From: Mytilus trossulus
Taxonomy: Eukaryota
DNA: 64,000 bases
Direction of reading: 5' to 3'
Assembly (NCBI RefSeq): GCF_036588685.1
Contig: NC_086374.1
Span: 38,006,001 to 38,070,000, forward strand
Every line of letters begins with the position of its first letter. Within the stretch, counting starts at the first letter, position 1. The notes below the pieces were generated by a model. The model was not told the DNA's origin, made no database searches, and saw nothing but the letters and a program-made list of their open reading frames with translations. Shown one piece after another: positions 15,636 through 48,200 of the stretch. Position numbers and translations under genes: made by a program.

Positions 15636-16496
15636 CAAAACTACATGCTCTGTTAAATAATAAAAATATTGATATTGTCAATTGAGTATAATACCGCATA
15701 ATGAACTGAAAAGTAAAGAAGAATGCAACTGATAAGACGAAATGCTTACAGGTTTATTGTGTGAGTCATTAATTTGTAAACCTTTTAGTTTTGATAATGA
15801 ACCTTTGTACCATGAGAAATCAAATAAACTAATGTTTTCTTCATTCGAAATTGCATCTGAGCCATTTAATATTAATTCAATGACCATTGGTGAGTCCGTG
15901 TAACACTTATCAATTCAAAGTTTTAAAAAGTTTTGAAATTTTAGATTTTTGGAATTTTGATCAAAGTTTTAAAATATCAAAATTTCAAATTGTGTTAAAG
16001 TTTTGAAATTTTGAAATTTTAACCAAATTGTTAAAATATAAAAATTCTAAATATCGTTTATAAATTTGATATTTTAGAAACTTGATCAAACTTTTAAAAT
16101 ACTAAACCTAACGAGCAATTTTGATTATTTCACTTTTTGAAAGTTTTATTTTTTAAATGTTTGCTTAAAATATCAAAAATATAAAGGGGCGACAAGAGGG
16201 GTACCTGTAATCACTGATGTAGACACGGCTCTGATAAGGACTATTCTTAGATAAAATAAATATCATGACATATATCAAATCATTCTTCATAACAAAATAA
16301 ATAATGAAAAGAAGAAGTCGGTTTTTTTATGAAACATATTAGACATCACATGGGATAACAGTATCCTGAAAATTTAAGGTTGTGCATCTATCAAAAAAAA
16401 AATATAATTAAACCTATTTAAACCGGAATCAACTACGCTGATTTAAATCTCTTATATAAGGTTTAGCGTTTGAGATAAATAATTCAAAGCCTTTTT

Positions 16497-18534: not shown

Positions 18535-19914
18535 AAAAACCGGCAACATTTATATTCTGGTATCCATCTATGATGAGTTTTTGTAGATACCTTGTAACAG
18601 TATCTTGGTTCCAATTTGCTGATATTGGATCTTAGTACCGTCTTTTAGAGCCGTACGTCTGGTTTTTAAATAGATTATCTTCTTTTAAGAAATATTAATT
18701 TTGTCATTCAATTTTTCACCGCTTACAAATGTCTGTTTTATTTCATACATAAAGTTTTAAGTATCAGTATGTTTTTAATTCATAATGTTTCGTTTCGTTC
18801 CGCTTTTATTTCGTTTCGCTTTTTACAGGTATCCCTCTTATTGCCCCTTTTCTATTTTGATATTTTAAGCAAACATTTAAAAAATCAAACTTTCAAAAAG
18901 TGAAATAATCAAAATTGCGCGTTAGGTTTAGTATTTTAAAAGTTTGATCAAATTTCTAAACTATCAAATTTATAAACGATATTTAAAATTTTGATATTTT
19001 AATAATTTGGAAAAAATTTCAAAATTTCAAAACTTTAACACAATTTGAAACTTTGATATTTTAAAACTTTGATCAAAATTCCAAAAATCTAAAATTTCAA
19101 AACTTTTTAAAACTTTGAATTGATAAGTGTTACACGGACCTTGGTGCCGTTAATTTTAGGCTTCCAAATGATATTATCAGTTCCTGTCTTATGTCCGAGT
19201 ATAATGGGCAAAATAATAAAAATTGAGCTAGTTTCTAAGTCACCACAGCGACAATTAGGAGAAGAAACTAAGTTTCTTGGAAACAAGTGACAGTTTAAAG
19301 AACTACGTTTCATTCTAAGTCGAGCGTGATGAGTTTGGCCTTTTGGACATCCAGCATAAAAGTATAAAGGGACGCGATCGTTCTGATTTCAAATTTGTTT
19401 TTTGAATACAGAGATAGATTCACAATTTCTAACACTTAACGGTAAATGATTCTAGAATTTGATGGATGACGGAAGATAATAATCAGAATAAAGTTTAGTA
19501 CGTCACAGTGATTTAACCTGTAATAGATTATTACTTTGTCTTGTTCTGTGGTCGTGTCGACCACTGACATAGCCAGGGAATAGCTCTTGCAAATAATTTG
19601 GGGTTTTATTATTTACAATTTTATAAAGCAATATTAATTTTTGGTTACTTCTTCGATCGGAAAGTTTCTCCCATTGGGTTTCTTTATATACCATCGACGT
19701 ACTTGTGAGCTTATTCACCACTGTAACAATACGGGCGGCGTCCAACTGGATGTTTTCAAGTTTATTCATTAAAGATTGATTTCCTGAATCCCAGATAACA
19801 TCAGCATATTCAATGATAGGTCTTCATTGTCACTCATACCTCATCTTCGTATATCTATATATCATATTGATTTAGATCACAGCGTTAAAAGAGATAAGTT
19901 CTACTACAAGTTTA

Positions 19915-21015
19915 ATGGCACTTTACCCAATCTTAACTTTACTTGCTTTCGGAAATGATATGAGAAAGGTTAACTTATAACTGCTACATACACTGATCAA
20001 GAAACTTTGTATAATGCCATAATAAATGGACAAAATAAGAATATGCGACCACCAACAAATCAATCTAAGCCGACAAATATCTCCAAAGACTTTAGTCTTC
20101 ATACATTGCAGGAAATTGACGTAGTTGACGGAACTATGAGTTTAACTAACTGGAATCTTTTTTATTACATGGGACGCTGTCATCATGACATGAGACTACT
20201 TCCTCATACGGGGGTATAAAACACATGGGTGTGTCTATAGATTCTGTCTGGAAACCACCACTTATTAACTCAAATACAGCACATGAACAGAAAATTTTCG
20301 GAATACCGGGACTCTCTTTTAAACGTGTTATACGACGGAATAGTGTACTGGAATGCTGACGAAAAGTTGAAGTTCTCGTGTAATAGAGACACAATATACT
20401 TCCCCTTTGAATAGCTTTGATTCACAATCATGTACATTCAGAGTAAAGCCATTTGGTCTGGCGAAATTTGAAACGGAATTTACCTCTTCAGGCTATGTGC
20501 TGATCAATGATTATGGCTCTAACAGCGAATGGGAACTGTTGAGTTCTGTCATCACAGTAGATAATACGGATGGTTCACACATGAACGTCACTTTAAAGTA
20601 TAAAAGACGACCTCTGTTTTTGACTGGTGAACTTAGTGCTACCTATCATGTTGCTCGCAGTTTTAAATATCTTTGTTTTTATTTTACCTCCGGGATCAGA
20701 GGATCGTTTCGGGTTTTCAATAACAATTTTACTTGCTGCATTCGTGCTTATGACGATTGCACAAGGTTTACTTCCTGCAACTGCTCTTCCAAGATTGACT
20801 GCTTTGCGTATAATGCTGATGGTTGATATATTAATGAGTGGAATAATTCTTATATCTGTCATCATGGGTTTGTGGTTTTACAATAGACCACAAGATTGAA
20901 AACACCAACAACCAGAGTGTATAGTTGTAATATGGACAAAGAGAACAAAATAATAAAATGATCACGCCTGAAGAAAAGGTAATATGGCTAGACGTTGCCT
21001 CGTTATGGGACAAAC
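19915..21015 (+). pseudogene. Intronless nAChR-like Cys-loop receptor pseudogene
   Basis: Fragments in shifting frames: ETLYNAIINGQNKNMRP, WKPPLINSN, Cys-loop CNRDTIYFPF/DSQSC split by a 10-nt insertion, NSEWELL, KRRPLF, M1-M3 (NLVLPIMLLAVLNIFVFILPPGSEDRFGFSITILL...LLPATALPRL), KVIWLDVASLWDK. Several stops and frameshifts (e.g. AACT duplication near 20145); truncated before M4. Confidence 0.88.
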
Positions 21016-22697
21016 TTTTAGTCCTTGTATATCTATGATGAGTGAAATGATAAAAAATAGAAAAACAAAAATACCGAGCTCCCAGGAAAAATTCAATACG
21101 GAAAGTGCTTAATCCAATGCCAAAATCAAAAGCTCAAACACATTGAACGAATGGATAACAACTGTCATATTCCATACTTGATACAGGCATTTTTAAATGA
21201 AGAAAATGGTGGATCGAACCTGGTTTTATAGCTGTGTTACATAATTGTTTATCGTTCATATTTTGTATATTTATTAGGCCATTAGTTTTCTCCTTTGGAC
21301 TGTTTTATATTCATCATTTTGGGGCCTTTGACAGTTGACTATGCAGATGAGCTTTGCTTATTTTTGAAGGCTGTACAATCACATATTGTTGTTAATGTAT
21401 GTGTCATTTGGTCTATTGTGAAGATTTGTTTCATTGGAAAGTATACCACATCTTCTATTTTTATATCATAGGTAAAAATGTCAGAAATAGAGGAACATCA
21501 GTCATCATTGTGTTATAATCAAATCAATAAGAAAACAAAACAATTATGCCAACAAAGAAAAACAAATAAACAGATAGAGAAAGAACATTAGCAAAAACGA
21601 AGGACAAGAAAACAAAAAATTAATATGCCACGGTCTCACACGAAAAAAATAAAATCTAATTCATTTTTCATTAAAATAAAACGAGGAGCATTTAAATATT
21701 GAAAATTTGATAGAACATTTTGTATTTAGAGTAGTTTCATTGTGTACACATATTATTACAACATTGGATATCTTCCACTTTGATATAACAATTGGGAGAC
21801 ATTCTATTTCTACGTCAATTGTATTATTATTGTCTACGTTCAATAGCTCTCGGTAAAATGAAACTAAAACAAGCCACGAAGAAATAATCTTTAAAAGATT
21901 CGTGCCATAGAATATGACTTTGGAAAAACAAAATTTCGAACTCCAAGGGAAATTCGAAACGGAAAGTCTTTTATAAAATGGTAAAATCGAAAACGTAAAC
22001 ACATTCAACGAATGGAAAACAACTGCCATATTCCTCGGTACAGGCATTTCCTTATTGATGTCGAATATTTTGTTTATTCAGGCTCCTTTGAGTCCATGTC
22101 GTCTCTTTGTTCATCACAGGACAATTTCCTCTTTGACCATCATATCATATCGGATCCCCTTATCTTTAAATGGTGAACTATTAATCCATGAAGAATCGAA
22201 ATCTTCCGTTAGTACGTATTACACTTTTAAGAATCAAACGGTTCAAGTAAACAAGACTAATGCTAAATATTTATTTTTCATAAAGTTACAATTTCTCCTT
22301 TGTTAAATATTTATAAAAGACAAAGAGAAAGAACCATTCCCATTATCCTAAGTTTGAACATGAAATCGTTCTAAAGATGGAGTCAATATATATGTATATA
22401 TATGATCATAAATGGACGGTGATAAAAAGTAAAAGTCGATTATCATTATTAATCTTTTGAAGAGTGAATTTAAATGTTACAACGACTAAATAAACATTTG
22501 GGTACTAATTGTTGCGAGAGGATAAACATAATGTATGGTAAAGCAAACATATCATCACTCAGTGACAATGAGATGTAACATTATTTACGAAAAACCGCCA
22601 CATATAAATGCAATTGCATTTTACCCTTTAGCTTAATGAGACACAGACCACACACAGTTGTTTAGTTTCATTGGTGTGAAACGTGCCATCACTGCAA

Positions 22698-23960
22698 ATG
22701 GATTTGTGTCAACTTTTAAAGCCACAAATGCCACAGTTGCACAGATTGTTATTAGTATTACTATTAGCCTTTCAAATGATCAACGCATCTTATTTTACTG
22801 AAATCGATAGATTGCATAAAGATTTGATGACTGGATATAATAAAGATATATTGCCACAATGGAACAAATCACAACCAGTAGATGTCTCGATTGTATTTCA
22901 TTTACTTAATCTGAATGGAATAGACAGTGTAAAGGGAGTTATTGCCATTGCAGGATATTTTATTTTTCAATGGATTGACGTAAATATGCAATGGACACCA
23001 GCCAATTACACTTCTATAGAAAACATAGTCATACCCCTTGAAAAAGTATGGAAACCGCCTGTTATAAATGCTAATTCTGTCATGGAATATAAATTCTTTG
23101 GAGCCGCAGGTACCTTTGTTCGTGTTAACCATACAGGTCTGGTTACATGGACTCCAGGTATTAATTTGGAATTTTCTTGTAATATGGACACAACGAAATA
23201 CCCTTTCGATACACAGATGTGTGAACTGGAAGTTATGATATGGGGGTACAGTTCAGAAGAACTTACTTTTACGACGAGCAGAACTGATGTTGACATCAGC
23301 TTTTATCAATTTAACAATGAATGGGAATTAATGTATACTTCGGCTGTTGCGATCAATACAAGTAATTTAAGTCCGCTTGTGCAAATTGAAACCCACTTTG
23401 AACGTCGTTCTTTGTATTATGTAATGAATCTTATTTTCCCTGTAATGCTTTTAGCATTACTAAATTTATTTGTATTTCTTTTGCCACAGGATTCAGGTGA
23501 AAGGGTTGGATTTTCAGTTACACTATTGTTAGCAAATGTTATGTTTCTAACGATTGCAGAGAATATGCTCCCAGCTACAGCAATACCGAGAATGTCCGCC
23601 ATTTGCATTGCACTGTTACTGAATCTATGTTATAGCGGACTTATAGTCATTACTGTTATCATTAGCGGCAACATCTATCATAAGCCGGACGAGCAGGTTA
23701 TCTCTAACTGGATAGTGAAATTTGTACAAATAGGTAAATTATTTAGAAGTAACCATAAGCAAGTATCATCAGAAATGATAATTCCTCACGTTGAAAAGGA
23801 CTTCGATGGAGAAAAATACGAAAACAGGAAAGAAAATAACCTACACAAGGTCAACTGGCAGCAAGTTGCAAGAATGGTGGACCGTATTGCCCTTATCTCT
23901 TATATTACACTTTTCATATTTGGTTGTAGCGGCGTTTTTATAGATTGTTCCCGAAGGTAA
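22698..23960 (+). CDS. Intronless divergent non-alpha nicotinic acetylcholine receptor-like subunit (copy A), ~420 aa
   Basis: Single ORF, first ATG at 22698 (alternative at 22728). Signal peptide, WKPP, Cys-loop CNMDTTKYPFDTQMC, NNEWEL, ERR pre-M1, M1-M3, DSGERV cation-type motif before M2, NWQQVARMVDR before M4. No vicinal Cys pair in loop C. Confidence 0.95.
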   Translation: MDLCQLLKPQMPQLHRLLLVLLLAFQMINASYFTEIDRLHKDLMTGYNKDILPQWNKSQPVDVSIVFHLLNLNGIDSVKGVIAIAGYFIFQWIDVNMQWTPANYTSIENIVIPLEKVWKPPVINANSVMEYKFFGAAGTFVRVNHTGLVTWTPGINLEFSCNMDTTKYPFDTQMCELEVMIWGYSSEELTFTTSRTDVDISFYQFNNEWELMYTSAVAINTSNLSPLVQIETHFERRSLYYVMNLIFPVMLLALLNLFVFLLPQDSGERVGFSVTLLLANVMFLTIAENMLPATAIPRMSAICIALLLNLCYSGLIVITVIISGNIYHKPDEQVISNWIVKFVQIGKLFRSNHKQVSSEMIIPHVEKDFDGEKYENRKENNLHKVNWQQVARMVDRIALISYITLFIFGCSGVFIDCSRR

Positions 23961-24537
23961 AATTTTGTGTGTTGCTGTAAGGGGAACGTTATATAAATTC
24001 GAGAAATACTGTTAAATAAATCCGACATAATTTATAGTCTAAACTGTTAGAAAAGTCAAACAAATCATTGTCCAAACTGTAAGAAATAAAAGTGGCGAAA
24101 AAATAGACATTACTAGAGGTGCAGCGTGCAAAAACAAACCGAGGAAGCTATATAACAATAACCATGTCAAATGGTACATCCAGTGCAAAAGGAAGAAGAA
24201 AAAAGAATAACCAGACACCTACTTCATATCATTGACTGACGATATTCCGAACTAGTCAAAACAAAAACAAAACAAAAATAAACACAAAATTGTATTTTTT
24301 AACAAAATCTCAGTGTTGTATGCAAATTTTTGTTGAACAAAACTCACTTTTGTCCGTACAAAATTGAATTCAAGTACAAAACCAGAACAGTCCCATTCGG
24401 CGCCCGTACTAGCAGTCACTCGTTTATTGTTCAACCAAACAACGATAATTGTAACTTGCATAGGACATAATTATTAACTTATGTCATCTGATTTTAGTAT
24501 AGCACTGATTTTTCATAAAAAAAAAAAAGTGGTTGCA

Positions 24538-25153
24538 TTTTTATGCCCCACCTACGATAGTAGAGAGGCTTTATGTTTTCTGGTCTGTGCGTCCGCTTGT
24601 TCGTCCTTCCGTCCGTCTGTACTTCTGTCCGTTCGTCCCACTTCAGGTTAAAGTTTTTGGCCAAGGTAGTTATTGCTGAAGTTGAAGTCCAATCAACTTG
24701 AAACTTAGTATACATGTCCCTGTGATATGCTTTTTATGCCCCATTTATGGGCATTATGTTTTCTGGTCTGTGCGTCCTTCCATCCGTCCGTCTGTTCGTC
24801 TGTTCGTCCGTCCGTCCTTTTGTCCCACTTCAGGTTAAAGTTTTTGGTCGAGGTAGTTTTTAATAAAGTTGAGGTCCTATCTATTTGAAACTTAGTAAAC
24901 ATGTTGCCTATGATATGATCTTTCTAATTTGAATGCCAAGTGAGAGATTGTATCCATTTTCATGGTCCACTGAACATAGAAAATGATAGTGCAGATGGGG
25001 TATCCTTGTACTTGGGACACATTCTTGTTCTTATTTAGATGCCAGATTAGAGATTTTACCCCAATTTTTACACATAAAACACATTTAAGTACATTAAACA
25101 CAGAAAATGATAGTGCGAGTGGGGCATCCGTGTACTATGAACACATTCTCGTT
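24538..25153 (-). mobile_element. HINE/Helentron-like non-autonomous repeat, tandem partial copies
   Basis: Same family as 37160-37454 and 53021-53300 in the opposite orientation; (CCGT)n-type microsatellite, terminal TTATGCCC..GGGCAT palindrome, T-rich insertion site; absent from duplicate copy B. Confidence 0.65.
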
Positions 25154-26439
25154 ATACATTTTTCATTTTTAGTCTTTTCCTTAAAAAACACGAATCAGTC
25201 GGCTTTCACACGAAATTAACGGATTCATCTTATGTAGTGTAGATATAAATAATTTAAATAAAATATACGCTATAGAGGTAATTATTTTGTGTATTCAGTT
25301 AGATATTCAATAAATTGAATACACAAATGCTTTACCTGAAAACCAGTCTAATTATCAACTAACGTGATATATTAATGTTGATCAATTAAGACTGCATTTG
25401 AGTCGAGTTGAGTTCAATCAAAACTTGCACCTTTGAGTGTTATTGTTTGAAAATATCTTGACAGCTGTCTATCATACTAGTATTGAATCTCATTTTTCTA
25501 ATGAAAGAATGAAAATTTCAAAAAAATGTTGGAATTAACTTTGATATCAAATTTTATTCAATGGTTTACAGAAATATACATGATACTGACAAAACACTTT
25601 CATTATTCTTATCAACTGACTATTATATTAATAAAATTATCATTTTCCACATTAATAAATTAATGGCAATTTAGAATATATTTTGATTTTCTAAAAGGAA
25701 CTATATATATGCTATTGTGTATATATAGAAATAAAGCAGTTTTTCGCCTGACATTTTCTTAATTTAAGAACAAATAAATGAAACATTAGTATACCGCTGT
25801 TCGCAATATATTGCATGTTTGTGTTCCCAAGTATCTGATACTTCACTCAGACTCAGAAATAACATATCAAAAGTTGGCAGTTAATGATTGTAAAAATTGT
25901 GTTTCCAGTCATAGAAGCACACACTTATTTTCATTTTATGTCTTTTTCTAAGGATTTTGCACCATTCCGGTAAGAGGTGAAACCTGCGGAATCTCACGCG
26001 TTATCGTGAGAGGAATTCCATGTCTGTCATTCAAAATTCATGAATAGCAACATACTTGGTCGGTTGAGAACAAATCATTACTACCTACATATAGATGATT
26101 TAAGTTACTCAGTTGTGAACTTTTCGTTTCCTATCATGATTTCCTCGAATGGGGTAACCAATCACAAGGAAGCTATTTCACCAAGAGCTCCAAGTGGTGC
26201 GTTTGAATGCATTTGTGAAACAGTCAACTAAATCCCGATAGCGATCTTAACATTTTCAAAGAGATGCCTTCAACTTCACCACTTGTAACTCTTGGTTTAA
26301 TAGCTTCCTTGTAATTAACAATCTAATTCAAGAAAAAAATGATAGGCAAAATCCGGCCCGCAAAATCAATCCTTTAATTTGCAACCCATTTTAAAGGAAT
26401 TCATCATAGGCAAATCAATCAGTGACCTAGAACAAAAAC

Positions 26440-27352
26440 AACAAAACCTTAGAATCCTAATGATAAACTGTCAAAGCGTAAGAAATAAACGATCAAGCTA
26501 TGTGAGTGAAAGCAGTATAAAGATAAACATATAATACTTGCAGGAGATTTCAACCTCGTCATATTGACTGTGATAACAACACAATCAAATCAAGAAAAGC
26601 ACAAGTAAAACATCACCAATAGCGTCTTAAACTCATTGAAGAATTTGGCATGGAACAACTAAATGAATTATTTTTTTTACAAACCATTCAAGCCTTGAAA
26701 AGTCATGTACCAAACTACCTGGAATAACAAATAACAAAGATCATTTTTCTTAAAACAGACTTAAAACCGCAATACAATAAACCAAAACCAAGAGAAATAT
26801 ACGTTTACAAGAAATCAAAATGGGAGGTGAGCAAATATGGCATTATAAAATTGGGCTCTGACATCACCAATAGTAACACCTCTGTTGAAATTAGGAAGAC
26901 CAACCTCAAAAATAATATTGTAACAACACTCAATCTTAATTTACCAAAGAATATAACAATTAAGAGACATAAAAAGTAAAATCTCAAAAATAATGAATTC
27001 CGAAGAAAATTCAAAGCAGAAAGTTCGTAATGAAATGGCAAAATCAAAATCTACATTGGTTATCAAAAAACGTGAATAAAAAAAGGAAAAAACACAAACT
27101 GTTCCAGAAAGCTAAACAGACAGAATTGTCCGAAGACTGAGGAAAATTTAAATATAAAAAATAAAAAAGCTAACTGGCAGTATGACAACAAAATACTAGA
27201 CGCAGCTTTGGAGGACGGTAATAGTAAAACTTGCTTGCGATACATAAAGTCAGAACGTACTGACAAGGTATAGGTGTTGCTGGAATTAACAAACATGGAT
27301 TTTTTTTACACTAGGATATCAAATTTAAGGCAGACTTACTTAATGAGTAATT
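26440..27352 (+). mobile_element. Degenerate LINE ORF2 fragment (APE endonuclease region), copy A
   Basis: LRILMINCQSVRNK and IILAGDFNL motifs; many frameshifts; paralogous to 36140-37652. Confidence 0.75.
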
Positions 27353-30300
27353 TATGAACGCTAGAATGAATTTATCAGTGGCGGATCCGGAAATTTTCCT
27401 TAGAGGAGGACCCTGGACTTCTAAAGAGGGGACCCGCTCTATTCATGCTTCAGTGATTCCATAAAACACCCACATTTTACGAAATGAGGAGGCGGGCGCG
27501 TTGATGCTCCTCTAAATCTAGTTAAGGCATGTATAATTTAATTGCACTTGAATACGAATTAGAAAAAATCCTATCGGATTTAGAATTTCAATAGCTGTTC
27601 GGAAGACTCATGGAAAGATTGAACAGAAGTACCTTTTTTTTTCACTGACGTTCGGAAAAGTTCCTGTTTTATGTCCTACCTTATGGGCATTATATTTTTC
27701 GATCATTCTGTCCCGCTTCAGGTTATTGTTTTTAGTGAATGTAGTTTTTGATGAAGTTGAAGTCAAACCAACTTGACTTAATACACATGTTCCCTATGAT
27801 TTTTAATTTCTAATTACAAATGTATAATAAATTTATTTGTAAGCGATATTTTCCTAAAGTATTCCATTCTTTCACATTATGGATTTAAAATGTACAATTT
27901 CGAAACTGGAAGGTCTTCTCCAATTAGAACTTTCATATACATCTTTCTTTTTGATATGGTGGCATATTTTTCACACACTAAAATACAAATGAAATCTCTA
28001 TTCAATATTACTTTTTCTTTTTATTGATCAGCACTTTTAGACCATGTCAGCGTGTATCGTTGGTTACTGTCATTTTGTTTTTCGTTCACCTTTGTAGTAC
28101 CTGAGTTGGGCCATTATGTAATATTTTGTTTTATGAATGCAACTCTTTTTAGCATTTAAAACAAAAATGTGTTCATATAATGGACTATAACATCCCCATC
28201 TTATGTTAAAGGAGGACTGAACCCTCCGATATACATGGTTTACTCCACCACACTATTTATTTACTTGTCTTAATCTAGGAGTATGTACTCATTAGACAAG
28301 TGGATTGTTTTGATTGCTGTCCGTCAACATAATTTCCTGTTTTCGCAAAGACGGTTTGGATGAAATAAGTCTCCCCTAAAGAATGGCTGTGCCAATTGAA
28401 ATTGTATTTCATAGTGTTTTAATTTGTGTTACTTCGTTTTTTGATTGAGGTAAGCCTTCCAATTGATATTTTATAGTTTGTCTTTCTATGTTGTGATGTC
28501 ATACTATTGTTTCAAGAAAGGCAGAAGGTTTGGTACCATTTAAACGTTAAATCCCGGTAGAATTGTTTGCACATGTCCTAAGTGAGGAATCTGGTGCATA
28601 AGTGTTTCTCGTTTCTATATAGATTAGACCGTTGGTTTTCCCGTCTGAATGGTTTTATACTAGTAATATTTGATCGCCAAGGCTCCGTGTTGAAGGCCGT
28701 ACATGGACCTTTAATGGTTCACTTTTACAAATTGTTACTTGGATGGAGAGTTTTCTCATTGGCATACATACCACATCTTCTCGTATCTAATTAATAGTAA
28801 TTTTAATATTAAGGTTGCTCTCTCAATTTTTATTCTATAAATATCTCACCTGACGTAGACGTAGAGAAGTACATTAAAGTGACTTGAAAAAACTACTTAC
28901 CAAAGACAAACAACGACTCCCAAATGTTAAATTGATATCTATACGCACATGTGTTATCTAAATGAAAATTAGTAACATAGCTTCATTAATGATGAAATGG
29001 TAAAGATTTGAAGACAATGACAGTGGAAGAAACAGTTCACACTGGATCCATATTTGAAATAACATTTTTCTATTCATTTCAAGTGCCGATGGAGAGAAAT
29101 AAGAAGAACCAACCAATGCAGAAATGCTTACTATAAACTGATGTAAGTTAAGTCTAGTTGAGCCGCTCTGTGTGGCTAAAAGGGGGAACATTCATCGGAC
29201 AGTGGTTGTTTTTGTCTATAAAAACACGCATTACAATTGCTACAAACAATAATCATAAAATATGTCACAGCCTCACACGAAAAAAAAAATCTAATTCATT
29301 TTCTTGCTCATTGAAGAAAAACGAGGAGTCATAACGGAAATATGACTGAACATTTTGTATTAAGAATAGTTTCATTGTATATGTTGTGTAAGAGAGAGCA
29401 ACCGTAATATTAAAATTATTATTAATTAGATTTTTTGTACAAGTTATTAGTGTTTTATGACCTGCTGAACAAAAATGGATGATGCAAGCACACAGTATTT
29501 TGCTTCGCATATTTCTCTCATATTTTCACAACTTCATGATACAGTCTAATACTGAGCATTGATACAAACACATTACAAGACAACATAAAGATTTTGTATG
29601 GATATGCATATGGTATAAGGAAAATAATTAAAAAAGAATTTAAACTATTCAGGTATCCTCATTTTTAGGTTGAACACAAGGAGAATAGCACTTAATGTTA
29701 GGTTTATGTATACTTTTTTTGAATTTAAATCATTACACTGGTACATTTTGTAAGATAAACATGTATCACTTATTGCAACTATATAGGTTTTTAAAACCTT
29801 ATAACTTGTACAAAAACCCTGTACAAATTATAATTTGTAAACATATTATAACAACATTGGATATCTTCCACTTTAATATAACAATTGGGAAACATTCTAT
29901 TTTTACGGCAGTTGTATTAGTTTATGTAATGCCTACGTTAAATAGCTCTCTGAAAAAGTAAGCTTAGCCAAGCCACGAAGAAATAGTCTTAAAAAAGAAT
30001 CGTGCATAACCAACACTCCGAACTCCAAGGACATTTGAAACGGAAAGTCTTTTATAAAATGTCAAATGCAAAAGCGTAAACACATTCACAAATAGAAAAC
30101 AACTGTCATTTTCGTCTCTCTCTCTCTCTATCTTTCAAGAATCAAACGGTTTAAGTAAACAAGACTAATGCTGAAATATTTATTTTTCAATAATGAAGTT
30201 ACAATTTCTCCTTTGTTAAATATTCAAAAAGACAAAGAGAAAGAAACATTCCCATTACCTTACGTTTGAACATGAATTCGTTCTAAAATGGAGTCAATAT

Positions 30301-30607
30301 ATATATGATCATAAATGGACGATGATAAAGTAAAAATCAATAATTATAATTAATCTTTTGAAGAGTGAATTAAAATGTTACAACATGGGTAACAATTCAA
30401 ATGAACATTTGGGTACTAATTGTTGCGAGAGGATAAACATCATTTATGATATAGCAAACATATCATCACTTAGTAACAATGAGATGTAACATCAATTACG
30501 AAAAGCCACCACATATAATAACAATAACAATTACCCTTCAGCTTAATGAGACACAGACCAAACACAGTTGTTTAGTTTAATTGGTGTGAAACGTGGCATT
30601 AGAACAA

Positions 30608-31870
30608 ATGGATTTGTGTCAACTTTTAAAGCCACAAATGCCACAGTTGCACATATTGTTATTAGTTTTACTATTAGCCTTTCAAATGATCAACGCATCT
30701 TATTTTACTGAAATCGAAAGATTGCATAAAGATTTGATGACTGGATATAATAAAGATATATTGCCACAATGGAACAAATCACAACCAGTAGATGTCTCAA
30801 TTGCATTTCATTTATTTAATCTGAATGGAATAGACAGTGTAAAGGGAGTTATTGCCATTGCAGGATATTTTATTCTCCAATGGATTGACGTAAATATGCA
30901 ATGGACACCAGCCAATTACACTTCTATAGAAACCATAGTCATACCACTTGAACAGGTATGGAAACCGCCTGTCATAAATGCTAATTCTGTATTAGAATTT
31001 AAATTCTTTGGAGCCACTGGAGCCTCTGTTCGTGTTACACATACAGGTCTGGTCACATGGGCTCCAGGTCATAATTTGGAATATACTTGTAATGTGGATA
31101 CATCGTACTACCCTTTCGATACACAGATGTGTGAAATGGAAGTTATGATGTGGGGGTACAGTTCAAAAGAACTAACTTTTACGACGAGCAGAACTGATGT
31201 TGACCTCAGCTTTTTTCAATTAAACAATGAATGGGAATTAATGTATACTTCAGCTGTTGCAATCAATAGTAGTACTTTAAGTCCGCGTGTGGAAATTGAA
31301 ACCCACTTTGAACGTCGTCCTTTATATTATGTAATGAATCTTATTTTCCCTGTAATGTTTTTAGCATTACTAAATTTATTTGTATTTCTTTTGCCACAGG
31401 ATTCAGGTGAAAGGGTTGGATTTTCAGTTACACTATTGTTAGCAAATGTTATGTTTTTAACGATTGCACAGAATATGCTCCCAGCTACAGCAATACCGAG
31501 AATGTCCGCCATTTGCATTGCACTGTTACTGAATCTATGTTATAGCGGACTTATAGTCATTACTGTTATCATTAGCCGCAACATCTATCATAAGCCGGAC
31601 GAGCAGGTTATCTCTAACTGGATAGTGAAATTTGTACAAATAGGTAAATTATTTAGAAGTAACCATAAGCAAGTATCATCAGAAATGATAATTCCTCACG
31701 TTGAAAAGGACTTCGATGGAGAAAAATACGAAAACAGGAAAGAAAATAACCTACACAAGGTCAACTGGCAGCAAGTTGCAAGAATGGTGGACCGTATTGC
31801 CCTTATCTCTTATATTACACTTTTCATATTTGGTTGTAGCGGCGTTGTAATAGATATTTCTCAAAGGTAA
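30608..31870 (+). CDS. Intronless divergent non-alpha nicotinic acetylcholine receptor-like subunit (copy B), ~420 aa
   Basis: Tandem paralog of 22698-23960 (offset 7910 nt, no indels); Cys-loop CNVDTSYYPFDTQMC; same transmembrane architecture. Confidence 0.95.
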   Translation: MDLCQLLKPQMPQLHILLLVLLLAFQMINASYFTEIERLHKDLMTGYNKDILPQWNKSQPVDVSIAFHLFNLNGIDSVKGVIAIAGYFILQWIDVNMQWTPANYTSIETIVIPLEQVWKPPVINANSVLEFKFFGATGASVRVTHTGLVTWAPGHNLEYTCNVDTSYYPFDTQMCEMEVMMWGYSSKELTFTTSRTDVDLSFFQLNNEWELMYTSAVAINSSTLSPRVEIETHFERRPLYYVMNLIFPVMFLALLNLFVFLLPQDSGERVGFSVTLLLANVMFLTIAQNMLPATAIPRMSAICIALLLNLCYSGLIVITVIISRNIYHKPDEQVISNWIVKFVQIGKLFRSNHKQVSSEMIIPHVEKDFDGEKYENRKENNLHKVNWQQVARMVDRIALISYITLFIFGCSGVVIDISQR

Positions 31871-33455
31871 AATGGTGTGTGTTGCTGAATGAACAATTTA
31901 TTAATTCGAGTAATGCTAAAAAACAAATCCGACATTATGCATAGTCTAACTTTTTAGAAAAGTCCAAGAAATCCAATATCGTTATCCAAACTGTAAGAAA
32001 AAAAGGGGAGAAAAATGAGACAACACTAAAGGTGCAGCGTACAAAAACAATAAATCAGGAAGATGTAACAAAAACCATGTCAAATTGTATATCCAGTGCA
32101 AAATGTAGAAGAAGAAAAATAAGCAGCCACCTTCTTTATATCATTGACTGACGATATCAATCATAGTCAATCAGATCATTAGGATTAGAATACAGCATAT
32201 ATAAGTAATTACAAACCAACTTTAATATGAAACCCATTACTGGATTCAATTGCAATCTGAGGTTGTAATTTGTAAGCAGAGCAAGCTTATATTGATGACA
32301 CAGGCTGCCTTAATTTGACAAAAATATTTCTAAAAGAGCCATATATATAACATGGTCGCCAAGCTGTTCGACGCCATTCATTTAAAAGTAAAATATGACC
32401 TTCGGAAATATTGCGATAAGGTACACCTACAGCTTGGGTTGATTTTGCTTTGTCCACCGGCCCACCATGGAAGTGGCAAAGACTTGCAAGTATTATCACT
32501 TGAAAAAAAGCAGATAAGCATTTGTAATCAATTTTTTTACAAAAAAGAGATCATAGCTAGAGTGGGCAGGTGGAAAAAGCAAAATCCACTCGGGCTGTTG
32601 TGTACATTGTACCAACGTTATCAATCGGATATTGATTCTTAAAATTTCTAAAAAAAAAATCTGCTGTAAAATCTTCAATTACAATCTTGAAAATTTAATA
32701 CTTATAGTAATATTAAAACTTATATTTTTTCTACGCTTATCACTTCCATTCACCACACTCAATTTTCTTATTCGTCCCATTAAGTGTAGTATTTTCTGTA
32801 AAGTGTATTTGTTGATACAAATGTTTTGTTTTAGATCATAAAAATACCATACTGTGTGGAAAAGATTACAAAAACAATATCACTGAGGTTGATATCAACC
32901 AAATGCTTGTCTCTTTGCTCGAAAACATGTTTGTTAGAATTGGTTTTTTCTGTCTTCTTATCTTTTATGTTTGCTAATATGCTTTGTCTATATGCCTTTT
33001 TGTGCTTTTTTGTTACATATTTGTTTGTTTTTATAGTTATTCAGATTAAAACACAATGTTGACAGCTGTACCCCTATTTTTTTTTTTACATTTTTACCTA
33101 TTACTTTTGTTGTCATTGTCAATATAATGTATTTTGATGTGACTGTCATATAAGTGAGAGGTTAAGATAGCTTTAAACCCAGGTTAAATATTTCGTTGTC
33201 AACAAAAGAAAATGCTTGTACCAAGTCAGGAATATGACAGTTGACATTTATTCGATTGATGTTTTCGAGCTTTTGATTTTGTCATTTGATTAAGGAATTT
33301 CCTTTTTTAATTTTCCTCGGAGTTCAGTATCTTTATGATTTAACTTTTTGATATGTCAACTGAACAGACAGTTGGTATTCCCATGGGTACTTATTGTTTT
33401 TAATAGAAAAACTTCTCAAAGTCGAAAAGGGAAAAAATCTCGAAAAGTTGTTTAA

Positions 33456-34557
33456 GGACCGGTAAGGGCCGATTTTGGCCTCAAATTTCAGGTTCATCTA
33501 ACGAAAGATTTTGGACAATTTTTAAACACTTAAGTATCTATTTCAATTGATTCAGTTAGTTTATGTGACAGAATTTAACTGATTAAGTTTTTAAAACTCC
33601 TCCGATTAAGTTTTTAAAACCCCTCCTATCAATATGAAAACAACCGTCACTTTTCATGTGTTTTTTGTCAAAAATGAAAGTGGTCGCATTTGTGTTCCTT
33701 ACTCAACCTTTATATACATGTTATGTATTATCATCAAATGCAACTTACATTTCAATATTATGAATGAACACAAATGCGGCCACTTTTATTTAAGACGGAA
33801 ACCGTCTAAAATTTAACTAAAATGCTAAATTAATGATGTTAGTACCCGATATATGTGCATTGTTTTGTCAAAAACAGCCCACTATTTTGCAAAACTGCTA
33901 TATTTTGGGGCCAAAATAGGGTCTTACTGAACCTACTCCTTTCAATTTCCGGAAAGTTTGATGAAGTCCTAGCTGTCACTTGTTTATTGTTGGCTCGCGG
34001 GTACAAACAAATCAGCAAAAAAATTAACATTTGTTTTTTTTTATTACAAATATTATTTATTACACTATTAGTTTTAACTTTATAACTTGTTACAAAAATC
34101 ACCAAGACAAATCGATTTGGGTTGGCCACAAATGACTTTAAAATTGTTTTTATAGTAACATTAAAAAAGCTCGAAATTATCTCCCTTTGGTGCAAAAATG
34201 TCATTTTTTGACGTTTAAATTGAAACATCTTTTTTAACTCATAGGTGACCAATATTTTTTATTATTGTTTTCAAACAAGCTATACATAAACTTAATAATT
34301 GTAAAACTTAAGCGGTTTCTGTAATTAAGTTCTTTTCTTATTTCGATATTACCAATATTTCTCTATTAGTTCAACAGAAAAAAGGACATTTACAGTAATG
34401 TATGCTTCTTTCGGAGGCAGATTGTGAGCTTACATGAACGATGACCGCATGTTTTTATTTCATATTTTATTAGGTATAAGATAGTGTTTAATCATAGAAA
34501 AAAATAGCAAAATTCTATATTAAAAACAAAAGTTGATTTAGAACCTCGGGCCCCTTT
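33456..34557. mobile_element. Two adjacent Kolobok-like MITEs (~33456-33942 and ~33991-34557)
   Basis: Imperfect inverted ends (ccggtaagggccgattttggcc / ggccaaaatagggtcttactgaacc; ggctcgcgggtacaa / ttagaacctcgggccc), TTAA at the outer flanks; absent from copy A. Confidence 0.55.
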
Positions 34558-34922
34558 AAATAGGACATAATATTATCTCATCTGATTATAACACTGATTT
34601 TATATGGTCGCATTTTTATACATATTTTATTTTAGTATTTCCTTAAAAAATCCCATATCTTAGGAATCAGTCAGCTTTCACAAGAAATTAACAGTATCAT
34701 CTTATGTAGTGTTGATCAAAATAAATAACAGTTACTCTATAGAGGTAAAGATTTTGTGTTTTGAGTTAGATATGTGATTAATTGAAAACACAAATAAAAT
34801 GCTTTACCCCAACTAGCATGATATATTAATGGTGATCAATTAAGACTGAATTTGTCCGAATTATCATTGATATGGTCATATTTATAAATTAACTGTTAAC
34901 AAAACTTCTTTTTTTTAAATAC

Positions 34923-35271
34923 TAATAACATTAACGGTACCAAATTTCCTGCACCAGATGCGCATTTCGACAAAACATGTCTTTTCAGTGATGCTCGTGG
35001 CCAAAATATTTGAAATCCAAAGCTTATATAAAGGTTGATGAGCTATACCCAAAGATTTCCAAAAAGAAGAGCAAAATCCGTGAAAGGAATCAGAGCTTTG
35101 CATGAGGGAGATACATTCCTTAATTTATAATAATTTCTAACATGTTGTAACAGAAAATTTTAATAACACAATAAAACCCTCGTAGATTCATGCCAGTAGC
35201 GAGGTACTGGCTACTGGGCTGGTCATACCCTCGGAACTAACAGTCCACCAGCAGAGGCATCAACCTAGTAA
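34923..35271 (-). mobile_element. ~350-bp retrozyme-like monomer with a hammerhead, inserted antisense into another hammerhead-bearing repeat (~34855-35382)
   Basis: Contains the minus-strand hammerhead at 34951-34997; the host repeat carries a plus-strand hammerhead at 35296-35342; the whole composite is missing at the paralogous site (~25400). Confidence 0.65.
34951..34997 (-). ncRNA. Minimal type I hammerhead ribozyme with a single core mutation
   Basis: Minus strand: GCATCA-CTGAAAA-GACA tgttt TGTC-GAAA-TGCGCA (palindrome)-TC-TGGTGC. All three stems pair; the core has A where CUGANGA has G. Confidence 0.75.
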
Positions 35272-35295
35272 GGCTTTTCTACTTTTTTTTGGATT

Positions 35296-35342
35296 CGAGC
35301 ATCATTAATGAGTCATTTGTAGACAAAACGCGCGTCTGGCGT
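35296..35342 (+). ncRNA. Degenerate hammerhead ribozyme, same family as 18488-18534
   Basis: gcatca-TTAATGA-GTC atttgta GAC-AAAA-CGCGCG-TC-tggcgt; both core boxes mutated; shares the downstream ctggtatc..tatgatgagttt tail with the 18.5-kb copy. Confidence 0.6.
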
Positions 35343-36139
35343 AAATACAAAATTTAATCCTGGTATCTATGATGAGTTTATTGAATGAAGTTGAATCCAA
35401 TCAAAATTTGCAACTTTGAGTGTAATTGTTTGATACTGACAAAACACTTTCACTATTCCTATCAACTGACTAGATTTGATCAAAATTATATTTTCCACAT
35501 TAATACATAAATGGCAATTTAGAATAAAGGAACAATATGCAAGTGTTTATCTAAAAATAAAGAAGTTTTTGGTATGACTATTTCTTAATTTAAGAACAAA
35601 TAAATATTAGTATACCACTGTTCGCAAAATTCTGCATGTTTGTGTTTCCAAGTACCTGGTACTTCAATCAGACTCAGATATAACATATAAAAAATGTCAG
35701 TTAATGATTGAAACGGTGATTCCAGTTTCTGCAAGACATAGAAGCACACAATTCTTTTTCAAACTATGTCTTTTATTTAGGAATATGCACCATACCGGTA
35801 AGGGTCGAAACGAGCGGAAGCTCATGCGTTATTGTGAGAGGAATATCATGTCTGTCATTCAAAATGCATCAATGCAACATACTTGGTCGGTTGAGAACAA
35901 AACTTAACTAGATAGAAATGATTTCAGTTACCCAGTTGTGAACTTTTCATCTCTTAGTTGATACGATATTTCAGAAGTGAATTTCCCATCATGATTTCCT
36001 TGAATAGGGTTGCCAATTAAAAGGAAGCTATCTAATCAAGAGCTCCAAGTGTTGAAGTTGGATGCATTTTTGGAACAGTCAACCAAATCCTGATGGCGAT
36101 CTTGAAATTTCAAAGGAATGCCTTCAACTTCCCCTTAAA

Positions 36140-38430
36140 ATCTAAATGATAAACTGTCAAAGCGTATAAGAAAGAAACGATCAGACTAAACGAACGTGTC
36201 GAATACATCAAACCTGATGTTATATCATAGGATGTGATTCATGGTAATCAAATGAAAACCGAACGACAGAAATCTTTCCCAAAGGGTACAACAAAAATGA
36301 GTTTCGCAAGGACAGAAACAAAAACGGGGCAGTCGAATGCAATGCAGTCCATGATACTAATGCCTCCGATGACAACAGTAAAAATTTATAGTGAACTACA
36401 ATGGACAGAAATCCAAACAAAGACAAAATCAGTCCCTATTGGTTGCTTCTACCGTCCACCAAATGCAAGCATATACGCATATATATAACCTCATAACATC
36501 AGTACTATAAGAGTGAAAGCAGCAAAGATGAATTTTTAACACTTGCAGGAGATTTTAACCTTCCTCATATATAATGGGGGAAAACAACAGTCAAATCCGG
36601 AAAAAGCACAAGTAAAACATCACCAATAGCTTCTGGAACTCATTGAAGAATTTGGAATTGAACAACTACAAAAAAAAACAAGTTGGTAAAACAACATCAA
36701 TGACTTATTTCTTACAAACCATGCAAGCCTTGTAAAGTCATGAAGCACACTACCTGGAATATGAGATCACAAACATCATTATTCTTGATACAGACTTAAA
36801 ATCACAATTTAATCAACAAAAAACAAGAGAATTATACGTTTAAACTTTACAAAAAAGTAAAATGGGAGGTGATCACAGCTGACATTATAAAATTAGGCTT
36901 TGAAATCACCAATAATGACACCTCTGTTGAAAATAAGTTGACAAACCTTAAAAATGGTATTGTAACAACACTTATAAAAAATAAGAGAAAATCACAAGAA
37001 ACTCCGAAGAAAATTCAAAACAGAAAGTCCCTAATCAAATGGCAAAATCAAAATCTACATTGATTATCAAACAACGTGAAAAAGAAAGTAAGCAGAAAAC
37101 ACAAACTGTTTCAGAAAGACAGAAAAGCCCGAGGACTGATGCAATTTAAAGAACATAAAAACAAGAATGTGTCCCAGTACACGGATGCTTCATCCGCACT
37201 ATCATTTTTTATGTTCAGTGGACCATGAAAATGGGGGAAAATCTATAATTTGGCATTTAAATTAAAAAGGTCATATCATAGGATACATGTGTACTAAGTT
37301 TCGAGTTGATTGGACTTCATCTTCATCAAAAACTCCCTCGACAAAAAACTTTAACCAAAACGTTAACCTGAAGCGGAACGAACGGACGAACGAACGAATA
37401 GAGTGCCGGACGCACAGACCAAAAAACGTAATGTCCATTAATGAGTCATAAAAACTTCACAGAAAGCTGTACGACAAACTGACTGGCAGTATGTCAACAC
37501 AGTAATAGACGCAGCTTTTGAGGAAGGTAATGGAAAACCATTTTGGCGATGAATAAAGTTTAACTGTACTGACAACACAGGTGTAGCTAGAATAATTTTT
37601 TTTTTTTACATCAGGACAGCAAATGTTTGGCAGCCTTACTTAACGACCAATTCAAATCAGTCCTCATCACTTTGAAGACCAACTACCACAGACACATGAA
37701 TCAAAATATCCAAGTATGAACAACATTAAAACCGAAGTTCTGGTAGAAAAATATTGATGAAATTCAACATCAATAAAGCTTGCGGACCAGACGGCATCGC
37801 AAACAAAGTATAACAGCTATGCTCAACTGAATTAGTACCAGTAGTGAATTACATATTTCAGCTTAGTCTAGACTCAAAAACACTACAATCTGACCAAAGG
37901 AATGCGAAAATCAGTCCAATACTTAAAAAGGGATTATATACAAAGCAGCATATTACTGACCTGTATCACTCACTTGTGTAGGCAGTAAACTCCTTTAACA
38001 TATAGTTTGCAAGCCTATCCTGAAACACCTGAGGCACACATTATACTTATGTAATTCCAACATAGCTTCCGTAGTGGCCATTCCTGCAAAAGTCGGCTTC
38101 TTATTACTTACTATGCATGACATCATGAAATCTTCCGATGACATCAAGGAAATTGATTGAACCATACTGGATTTTAGTAAGACATTCGAAACTGTGCCTC
38201 ATCGAAAAGTTTTACACAAAATTAAGAACTAGGGAATTGAAGATAATACAAATGCATAGATTAAATTAATACTATAATGCAACGTGACAAGCGAGTTATG
38301 GTCGGAGGATCTTTCCTCTTTCCCCTTTATTGCAATGGCATATTAATGACTGTGTAAAATCACAAGTACATCTGTTTACCGACGACTGCCTCCTGTATAA
38401 TTCCATAAACACACCATATGACCAATTTCA
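36140..38430 (+). mobile_element. Degenerate LINE ORF2 (endonuclease plus reverse transcriptase), copy B
   Basis: MINCQSV, IGCFYRPPN, LAGDFNLP, KACGPDGI, PVSLTCVGSKLL, FQHSFRSGHSC, ILDFSKTFETVPH and LFTDDCLLY motifs in broken frames; interrupted by the repeat at 37160-37454. Confidence 0.85.
37160..37454 (+). mobile_element. HINE/Helentron-like repeat inserted into the LINE remnant
   Basis: aacaagaatgtgtcc...(GAAC/GGAC)n...cataaaaa; inserted in an A-run; absent from the paralogous LINE in copy A. Confidence 0.7.
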
Positions 38431-45200: not shown

Positions 45201-48200
45201 TGATAAAATGTTATGTTTCATCTAGCTCTAACGGGGAAAAAATTGAAATGAATACATCTATCAAGGCTATAGATGCTGTTAAAATGTTTGGTGCATATGT
45301 AAGCTTTGAACTGACTGACAAATTTTGTGAAAAAACTAATTCAAATCAACAAAAGAGTGCCTTTGATGTGCTTATGTCTTCAAAAACACCTTTATACTTT
45401 AGTTCTCATGTTAAGTTTTGATTTATTTGTTTTAAATTTTGTTTTAAGAATTGTTTTCAATTAATAAAACATTTGAATGTATCAGAGCTTTTATTTAATA
45501 TTAAGATTCACTAAATTTGATATTGAAAAGATCAACCAATTTCACTGTAATGGTTCTTCCTTGGTACAGGTCTTACAGTAGGCGTTCCTTACTTGCTTGA
45601 AGAAAGAGTTACCTCCCATTTGCAAAGTTATCTTATTTTATAATTGAAATAAATTTTTATACTTTTTTAAATGAAAAATAGTAGTTTTTGCAAATATTTC
45701 TAATAAATTTCTTTAAATGATATCTACTGTCTGATAGGATAGGATAAATTAGTATGTACATTTTTAATTCCACAAGATATTAAGATATAAAACATAATTT
45801 CATTAGTTTATTTTCTGAAAAAAAAGTATGCAGAACAAAATATTAATATATTGCCAAAAAGTTTACATAAAGTATTTAAATTATAGGAAGATAACTCTGC
45901 AAATGGGAGATAATTCATGCTTAAAACATTATTGATTTGATACAGGGAATTATTGATTATACATAGGTTTTAATACAACATGACACATCTCAGATCAAAA
46001 CATGTCTCTTCTCAAAGGCTTCAGTATAAATGGGAAATGTTTGAAATACCAAGGCCATTTATGATTTCTCAGAATATAGTCATATCAAGTTTGTACATTG
46101 CTAAATTTCCTGTTTGTCATGTTTGCTCTTTCACTTAGATATGACAGTATTGATCTAAAGTCACTGTTAATCAGTCCAGAACTTAAGCAGACTCTTGTGT
46201 TATTTTCTTTGTGTGTGTTTTTTTTCCTTGCTGTCTGGTAGGTTTTCTCAGAATCAGTTGACACAAAACAAAGAAAAAAACAGACACGGCCTAAACTAAA
46301 GACAGCACATTTGGAAGCTATTATTTTTTATTATGGATACTGTTTGATTATATAGATAACGTTCTAATAATTTTAGTCTGCTTCATTGTCCTTCTCCATT
46401 TAGTTCTAATTGTTGATTTTTTAACTAAATGTGACTATTTCTTACCTGATTCAACTGTCCATTATCTGGATCAAACATATATCCACAGTTCAAGGCCAGA
46501 TGTGTCTCATTCCTTCCTCCGTATACAAATATCATTTCTTTACCTGTTTAGAAATGAAAAATATTTAACATACTGTAGATTATTCATTGTTTATATTTGT
46601 TAGATAACAATTTTTGTGGATTCTTTAGTTACAGGAGGACATTTAATGTAAATTTTTTATGGGAATGCATGCAGTCTTTGGCAAAACCACAAAATCAAAT
46701 ATTCACTGAAATGATGGTTTTCCTCAATAGACGAAAATTGATAGTTACAAACATAATTGAATCCACAATATTGAAAGATAAAAATTGATGTGGTTAAAGT
46801 TTAATTAATAATCATTAATGTAAGTTGTATTTCTAAATAAAACATACTCAGTCTAAATTGCCCTATATATATTTTGTTATATACATTCCCTCCTTAAAAA
46901 TAATTGATTTAATGTTTTATAAAATTGCAATAAAAGGACATCATGCCTTAGAATAAAATTGGACTTTAAAATAGCCCCCAATATTTTTTAAAACATAAAA
47001 ACTCTTTTTTTTTTATAATTCATTTGTTGACACTTTGAAAACAAAATCAACAAAAAGTTCACACTAACATCTCTGTCATCCATTAATTAAAATACTGAAA
47101 AACATACCAGCTTTCTGGCAGACAACTGCAGAGTGGCGCCATCTAGGAACTGGAATGTATCCTGTTTGTTTTATCACAGAACAAGTTAATGACATAGATT
47201 CAATATCCTTCATCTCCTTATTATCACAGCTCATGTTTTCCAAAATAACAATGTCTTTTTTATCACAGTTTGAGTTTATTTTATTACTGTCTAAGTCTAA
47301 ACTATCAGATAAACATTTAGTTTTTTCCTTTATGTTTGTATCTGATACATTATGTCTATCTATAGTATCTTTTTTTGAGTGTGTTTCATTAGATTTTGCA
47401 TTGAGATGTGAAGTAGTTAAGTTTGTTTTTTCAATCTTAACACAATTTTTATCAGAATGTCTGGAATCTGAACTCAGAATTAATGTTTCCTTTTGTGCAC
47501 AGTTCAGATTATTAGATTCATCTTTATTCTGATTTACTTTCTTGTCTTTTCTATTTAAAAATTCATAATTTGAGTCCTCTATTTCGGTTTCTCTTGATGC
47601 ACCATTTAATATATCTCCATGTGCCAACTCTGTAGATGTATGTGAACCTTTACTTAAACTATTTTCTGTCCCATTTGTGCCGTTATCTTTTGTTTGAAAA
47701 GATGTCTCAGATCCTTCAGTTAATTTTCCTGTTGACTCATGACAATTAATCAGAAGCTGAACAACTTGTTTACAAGAATAGGTAGGTGACATTCTTCCAC
47801 CAATAAGAATTGTTGAGCCATCCTTCAGTGAACACAATGTATGTCGAAGTCTTACTACTGCAAGAAAAGATTATTTATTCTACACACATTTTGTCATTCT
47901 AATAGGAATAATGGATTATTATGTTTTCTTGAAAAAAATATCTTTTTTCATGTATTGTACAGAGGGAAGGGTAATAAGAAGATTGATTTGTGGTCAATAG
48001 GGAGACATCAAACTCTACATTGTATCTGGTTTTTGTATAGATCTTCATGTGAGTGACTTTTGATTGTTCTTTTATTATTATTGTCAAGAATAAGTGTTAC
48101 AATGTCAACAAGTTGGATGTATTTGATAAATTCATTGAAGCTTAATATTATCACAACTTATCTTTCATTTGTCTTTTTAGTGCTACAGATCTGTAGTATT

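Follow-up and report, generated by a model that had tools for sequence, protein, structure and literature searches.

Bivalve genomes carry between 99 and 217 genes resembling those of nicotinic acetylcholine receptors (nAChRs), and the ligands of the encoded proteins are mostly unknown (PMC6896357). As described by Jiao et al. 2019 (PMC6896357), this expansion is lineage-specific and consists of intronless tandem genes with diverse ligand-binding domains, most of them without a full acetylcholine site; the terms "gene conversion", "positive selection" and "Mytilus" are absent from the main text of that report. The two genes considered here, copy A and copy B, are members of the expansion. They lie in tandem, 7.9 kb apart, in a window of 64,000 nucleotides from the mussel Mytilus trossulus (contig NC_086374.1, positions 38,006,001 to 38,070,000), from the first letter of which all coordinates are counted. 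Recent gene conversion of the half of these genes that encodes the channel is well supported, and the two copies are diverged over an island in the middle of the ligand-binding domain.

Conversion of part of a gene, with the ligand-binding region left alone, has precedents in the Toll-like receptor (TLR) pairs TLR1/6, TLR1A/B and TLR2A/B, likewise tandem receptor paralogs, whose C-terminal parts are converted (PMC3125219, PMC6107061). In avian TLR2A/B, as in the mussel pair, both ends are converted and the central region is unconverted (PMC3125219). The pattern of the TLR1 family recurs in all four birds and the 12 mammals listed and its ligand differences are known, the protein family being an unrelated one; the mussel pattern comes from one lineage and has a mirror image in a sister species. 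Divergence islands between homogenised tracts also occur in the red and green opsins, in Drosophila CG18281/CG17637 and in copepod GOT1p1/p2 (PMC3924837, PMC2588116, PMC3728101). The causal residues are known for the opsins and the Drosophila peak is common to two species, and the mussel pair would stand at the suggestive level of copepod GOT1. A further comparison is with the chemotactile receptors (CRs) of cephalopods such as the octopus (CRT1; bioRxiv 10.1101/2025.10.28.685082), where molluscan nAChR-derived subunits have diversifying outer pocket residues and non-acetylcholine ligands have been shown for the cephalopods. Copy A scores up to 158 bits against vertebrate nAChR alpha chains and 115-116 bits against CRT1 or 8eis, and no cephalopod CR is present among the 37 Foldseek rows listed. 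In a literature search that mostly covered papers outside subscription, no report of conversion was found for Cys-loop or chemoreceptor paralogs, and the papers listed included nothing on this receptor family in Mytilus. Both the family expansion and the partial-conversion pattern (TLR2A/B, TLR1/6, opsins) are thus in print, and the mussel pair is a clean new example.

Over their 1263 nucleotides, copies A and B show 61 differences, and their products show 37. Of the amino acid differences, one (codon 16) belongs to the signal region, 30 fall within codons 31-239 and six lie from the first membrane segment (M1) onward, at 251, 288, 324, 414, 417 and 419. An initial reading of the window by eye, referred to below as the sequence-only reading, had given about 30 differences for the extracellular domain and six from M1 on, three of them in the final seven residues, and both counts hold. 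It had also noted that 23668-23936 and 31578-31846 are identical; they are, at 269 of 269 nucleotides, and a run of this length was reached in only four of 100,000 uniform placements of the 61 differences. A scan restricted to synonymous differences returned P=0.009 for the longest gap and P=0.002 for two adjacent gaps. In the predicted model of the receptor, the identical stretch spans the end of M3, MX, a short disordered loop and most of MA/M4.

Along its length, the pair shows a five-part profile comprising a diverged 5' flank, codons 1-108, the island of codons 109-239, codons 240-413, and a diverged 24-nucleotide tail with the 3' flank (Table 1). The flanks had been described as clearly diverged, and 390 of the 2799 sites aligned in the non-coding DNA of the duplicated unit are indeed different (0.139). 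The divergence that had been assigned to the entire extracellular domain is restricted to codons 109-239 (26 of 131 amino acids); since codons 1-108 hold only five differences, this part stands as an island between stretches of similar DNA. The stretch that had been quoted for dense differences around loop E, the Cys-loop and loop C, codons 128-167, runs from beta5 through loop E and beta6 into the Cys-loop; loop C lies at about 216-229 and has four differences. The similar tracts start three nucleotides upstream of the first ATG (22695) and stop 24 nucleotides before the end of the stop codon (23936). These limits fit those of the open reading frame (ORF), and conversion would therefore be nearly confined to coding sequence.

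The paucity of differences from M1 to the end, another point of the sequence-only reading, is unusual in one part only. For M1-M3, the 3/86 differences between A and B are normal for the family, since either copy differs from full-length relatives at 1-5 of 86 residues. For the intracellular loop and M4, A and B differ at 0/88 positions, as compared to 14-19 of 81-88 for relatives against the pair (not counting P0003, which is frameshifted, and P0016, a fragment). Nor is the pore module, described as a single one, strictly the same in both copies, since residue 288 (E/Q) lies at M2 19' and residue 324 (G/R) where M3 ends.

Synonymous sites also show a contrast. Island codons 109-239 differ at 14 of 87 such sites, which is not different from the non-coding value of 0.139, whereas codons 240-413 differ at 1 of 117 (P=5e-7 against 0.139) and codons 1-108 at 3 of 67 (P=0.012). 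At four-fold sites the counts are 0/64 for the channel half and 8/45 for the island. Synonymous divergence, for which a uniform course had been named as part of what would refute the reading, is thus non-uniform along the gene, and its drop in the channel half does not come from protein constraint because constraint cannot lower synonymous divergence in this way. The M3-M4 loop is usually the fastest-evolving part of such receptors, and across relatives it is the most variable segment, with 27 of 67 sites varying among nine other aligned rows. Six residues of this half (P330, Q333, F369, Y374, N376 and V394) are common to A and B and found in none of those nine.

Phylogenies of the segments tell the same story at the protein level, to which the cross-species comparison of relatives was confined. 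Trees were built from 11 rows for the island and 10 rows for the remainder, out of the 15 rows of the alignment; P0017 and P0019-P0021 were left out as near-duplicates or fragments, P0016 was also left out outside the island, and P0003 was masked after its frameshift. In the island tree, A groups with M. edulis P0010-P0013 (support 99/98) and B with M. coruscus-type rows (97/95), and a grouping of A with B is rejected by the approximately unbiased (AU) test (p-AU 0.002). Outside the island, A groups with B (96/95), and the same test rejects each of the two island groupings (p-AU 0.0001 and 0.003). Taken with the six shared residues, the segment trees place the duplication before the split from M. 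edulis and the homogenisation of the channel half after it. The only hints of a direction, from A to B, are P363 and a branch with 57/47 support, and no direction is claimed here.

Identical tracts between tandem copies are a typical signature of assembly collapse. Contigs of four sequencing runs (among 20 listed) were compared with copy A, with 80% likeness as the lower limit. Of these runs, X1, X2 and X3 are of DNA and represent three samples and two studies, one sample perhaps being the source of the assembly. In all three, two contigs cover 22993-23286 within the island. One has no letters other than those of A and the second has 33, 30 (to 23263) and 36, where A and B of the window differ at 31 and 30. 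The tract 23415-23936, by contrast, is represented by one contig in each run. Over 23554-23883, a single contig was found in all three runs among the pieces listed, with a summed depth equal to its own and with 4, 3 and 0 other letters among the variants listed for X1, X2 and X3. Its depth relative to the mean of the island contigs is 1.41, 1.92 and 1.58 (1.79 is expected with four differences), contig depth being a rough guide and not a copy number. Since the island resolves into two contigs and 23554-23883 into one, the sampled animals have no second, diverged intracellular loop. An artefact of assembly or polishing, with the reads of one copy used for both channel halves, is largely refuted by these results and is now very improbable. 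In its favour, contigs drop bubbles, such that isolated differences may be hidden and base-for-base identity is unproved by the runs, and one run possibly derives from the source sample. The three lines of evidence, namely synonymous heterogeneity, mutually rejecting segment trees and the separate short-read contigs, are independent, and together they bear out the proposal of the sequence-only reading that gene conversion homogenises the channel half.

The contigs also touch on two details of the pair. At codon 324 (31577), copy B has Arg, while Gly is present in A and eight of nine other rows and Ser in P0003; the single contig of X1, X2 and X3 has the letter of A at the equivalent of 31577, from which the identical tract may be 377 nucleotides long in other animals, or else the variant was lost as a bubble. 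In the island, A has seven private amino acid changes (23022-23228, codons 109-177). Those at 131, 159, 160, 167 and 177 fall at positions that are invariant in B and the nine other rows, and three are in or next to the Cys-loop. They are not errors, as the contigs of X1, X2 and X3 match A exactly there, and could be due to relaxed constraint or to a recent adaptive burst. The fourth run, X6, which is guessed to be of RNA, has A-type contigs over 22938-24138 and was not taken as evidence of expression.

The preferred explanation, to which a probability of roughly 0.55 is given, is that the channel halves were made nearly identical by recent ectopic conversion and that the middle of the binding domain is an unconverted remainder showing the age of the duplication. 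An intronless copy was duplicated along with about 6-8 kb of flank, the neutral DNA of which is now about 14% diverged. Strong purifying selection on M1-M3 and M4 may then have kept the copies pairable and convertible as the indel-rich flanks dropped out; purifying selection that favours conversion in coding DNA has been described (PMC3924837). After the split from M. edulis, one or more tracts over 23415-23936 would have put the six lineage-specific residues, which are observed in both copies, into place, with the intracellular loop taken along by the recent tract. A weaker and probably older tract may account for codons 1-108. Codons 109-239 would have diverged further under relaxed purifying selection, with a ratio of nonsynonymous to synonymous rates (dN/dS) of about 0.5, and at about 12% nucleotide difference the island would presumably now resist conversion.

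Why the island persists is the one point on which this explanation differs from its main competitor, as the conversion step is common to both. In the competing account, which follows the Teshima-Innan model, tracts that overwrote codons 109-239 were removed by selection because A and B bind different ligands. This is possible, although less probable than passive escape. The estimates of island dN/dS are 0.55 (NG86), 0.52 (LWL85), 0.53 (YN00), 0.47 (maximum likelihood) and 0.59 (own count), rising to 0.69-0.75 when transition bias is allowed. A value of about 0.5 is high for a receptor domain. Relaxed constraint fits it as well as a few selected sites do, and the proportion of nonsynonymous differences (pN) in the island is lower than the rate of difference in non-coding DNA (P=0.019). 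Loop limits known from the nAChR literature were mapped by alignment to muscle alpha1. When the extracellular domain is taken as a whole, the loops are enriched in differences (16/76 vs 14/133, p=0.04), which counts for selection, but the enrichment is gone within the island (13/64 vs 13/67) and core pocket positions there do not stand out (3/8 differ vs 23/123 others, p=0.19). In M. edulis, P0010 and P0012 have a mirror pattern with 5/131 differences in the island and 10/66 in the intracellular loop (p=0.008), and in M. coruscus, P0015 and P0016 differ at 7/111 island positions; the proteins of these two species come from different assemblies, with orthology not fixed by synteny. Conversion or re-duplication would thus appear to have struck different segments in different lineages. 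None of the five M. edulis proteins and one M. galloprovincialis protein retrieved groups with B in the island. The assertion that selection keeps the pockets apart therefore goes beyond these data: dN/dS is about 0.5, synonymous divergence (dS) is at the neutral level, the loops are not enriched within the island and M. edulis has the mirror pair.

Several observations nevertheless weigh against passive escape. The bootstrap interval of the island dN/dS, 0.31-1.21, includes 1, and codons 128-167 alone give 0.83-1.05 with wide intervals. Four differences, L/R227 (alpha1 Y198), T/A152, N/T144 and I/M181, are at positions equivalent to the pocket. Fourteen of the 26 island differences are states present in other Mytilus species, and sites at which A resembles M. 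edulis and B resembles M. coruscus fall in the island in nine of ten cases, as against two of nine sites of the shared-derived type (p=0.005). Since old states are shared with other Mytilus species, the island has escaped conversion for a long time. An island over most of the binding loops with conversion on both sides is also the shape expected if selection blocks conversion (PMC3924837, PMC2588116), and its layout is that of avian TLR2A/B (PMC3125219). Moreover, the segment limits and clades were picked after the alignment had been viewed, and M. edulis orthology is based on sequence and accession adjacency as opposed to synteny. A more elaborate version of the selective account, in which these are nAChR-derived chemosensory channels like those of the octopus, with the pocket shielded by selection, the pore and intracellular domain copied, and two ligand specificities (e.g. 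L/R227 in loop C, T/A152 in loop E) on one channel module, is doubtful. A and B may encode products that prefer different ligands, but the mosaic can be explained from the data without invoking selection for such a difference.

An improbable alternative is that B is a chimera formed by unequal crossing-over or import, its island stemming from a third, older paralog or an introgressed haplotype. The sequences nearest to the island of B are of the M. coruscus type (15-17 differences), and M. edulis has at least three copy types, therefore donors existed. However, the 3' tail and all flanks of B have diverged from A to the same extent as the island, and Q419 of the tail is also M. coruscus-like. 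The simplest history is that of an old B gene with its internal tracts replaced by conversion or by double crossover, for which the outcome is the same. The third copy of the window was rejected as a conversion donor, being too distant (28-48% identity).

Both copies are single-exon ORFs, and the database annotation of A (P0001, 410 amino acids) begins at Met11. The families PF02931 and PF02932, which cover the ligand-binding and membrane domains of neurotransmitter-gated channels, match both above cut-off. The cysteines C161 and C175, 13 residues apart in each copy, align to C128 and C142 of alpha1. A fold predicted from a 20-row alignment, with a mean predicted local distance difference test score (pLDDT) of 76.7, has M1-M4 and MX, and its Foldseek matches are nAChRs (E 5e-31, template modelling (TM) score about 0.7); a fold from the single sequence had a pLDDT of 40 and was unusable. 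The best sequence matches of A are nAChR alpha chains. Features kept with respect to muscle alpha1 are the C161-C175 Cys-loop, the loop B tryptophan W182 (W149 in alpha1), the M2 -1' Glu and the 9' Leu, and the latter two, as aligned, are taken to predict a cation channel. In the same alignment, loop C is four residues shorter than in alpha1 and contains no cysteine, hence no vicinal pair, and the aromatic cage is incomplete: Y93 is replaced by A125, Y198 by L/R227, and no Tyr is found at the position of Y190. As they lack the vicinal cysteine pair and the tyrosines equivalent to Y93, Y190 and Y198, A and B are classed as non-alpha nAChR-like subunits, and their products are predicted to be cation-channel subunits lacking the acetylcholine cage.

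Table 1. Positions of the receptor gene copies, their segments and the surrounding duplicated units in the window.
Feature	Coordinates	Strand	Remarks
Copy A, intronless gene of an nAChR-like (non-alpha type) Cys-loop subunit	22698..23960	+	420 aa
Copy B, tandem paralog of A	30608..31870	+	420 aa, 91% identical to A
5' tract in A, probably converted earlier or in part	22695..23021	+	8 differences in about 328 nt
Corresponding 5' tract in B	30605..30931	+	counterpart of 22695..23021
Unconverted island of copy A, codons 109-239 (Cys-loop and loops A, B, C, E and F)	23022..23414	+	26 aa differences, dS 0.18-0.21
Unconverted island in B	30932..31324	+	nearer to M. coruscus P0015 (15/131) than to A (26/131)
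Tract of A homogenised recently, from M1 through most of M4	23415..23936	+	4 differences in 522 nt, including the identical 269 nt
Matching homogenised tract in B	31325..31846	+	identical core 31578-31846
Unconverted 3' tail of A, marking the 3' end of the tract	23937..23960	+	6 differences in 24 nt vs 31847-31870
Duplicated unit around A	21622..27352	+	non-coding blocks with 0.09-0.23 differences per site vs B unit, many indels
Duplicated unit around B	29259..37652	+	counterpart of A unit
Third, distant nAChR-like copy	19974..20935	+	28-48% aa identity to A; frameshifts and stops

Within 12 kb, the array holds two intact copies and one broken copy, the last of which (19974-20935) resembles other Mytilus members of the family, with identity reaching 63% over the membrane part, more than it resembles A or B. 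Named relatives of more than 80% identity are all Mytilus proteins, and the 208 pattern matches of a metagenome scan included no relative. Irregular members are seen in other species: M. edulis P0010 has a second, partial membrane domain that resembles that of P0014, P0003 of M. galloprovincialis has a frameshift close to its end, P0016 of M. coruscus is truncated, and P0018 (53 amino acids) sits in the P0004 cluster with no visible likeness to it. The receptor array seems to turn over quickly. Just upstream of it is an inverted repeat pair at 15894-16210 and 18823-19139 (317 bp, 94.6% identical, spanning about 3.2 kb) that looks like the ends of a DNA transposon. Further downstream, a tandem array at 49981-50627 (units of about 75-78 bp, 8.4 copies) overlaps a minus-strand ORF at 50341-50733 and repeats the 3' part of that ORF. 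The start of this ORF and the ORF at 47076-47792 recall what we take to be LCMT2/TYW4-like exons, which Pfam did not confirm.

The pair shows that nAChR-like arrays swap segments, and whole-gene trees and the ages assigned to copies can therefore mislead. It is also a ready-made comparison of two subunits whose pores are nearly alike and whose ligand-binding domains differ at 26 residues in the middle. Should the two copies bind different ligands, the pair would help to map specificity in an orphan receptor family; otherwise it would be one more case of partial conversion.

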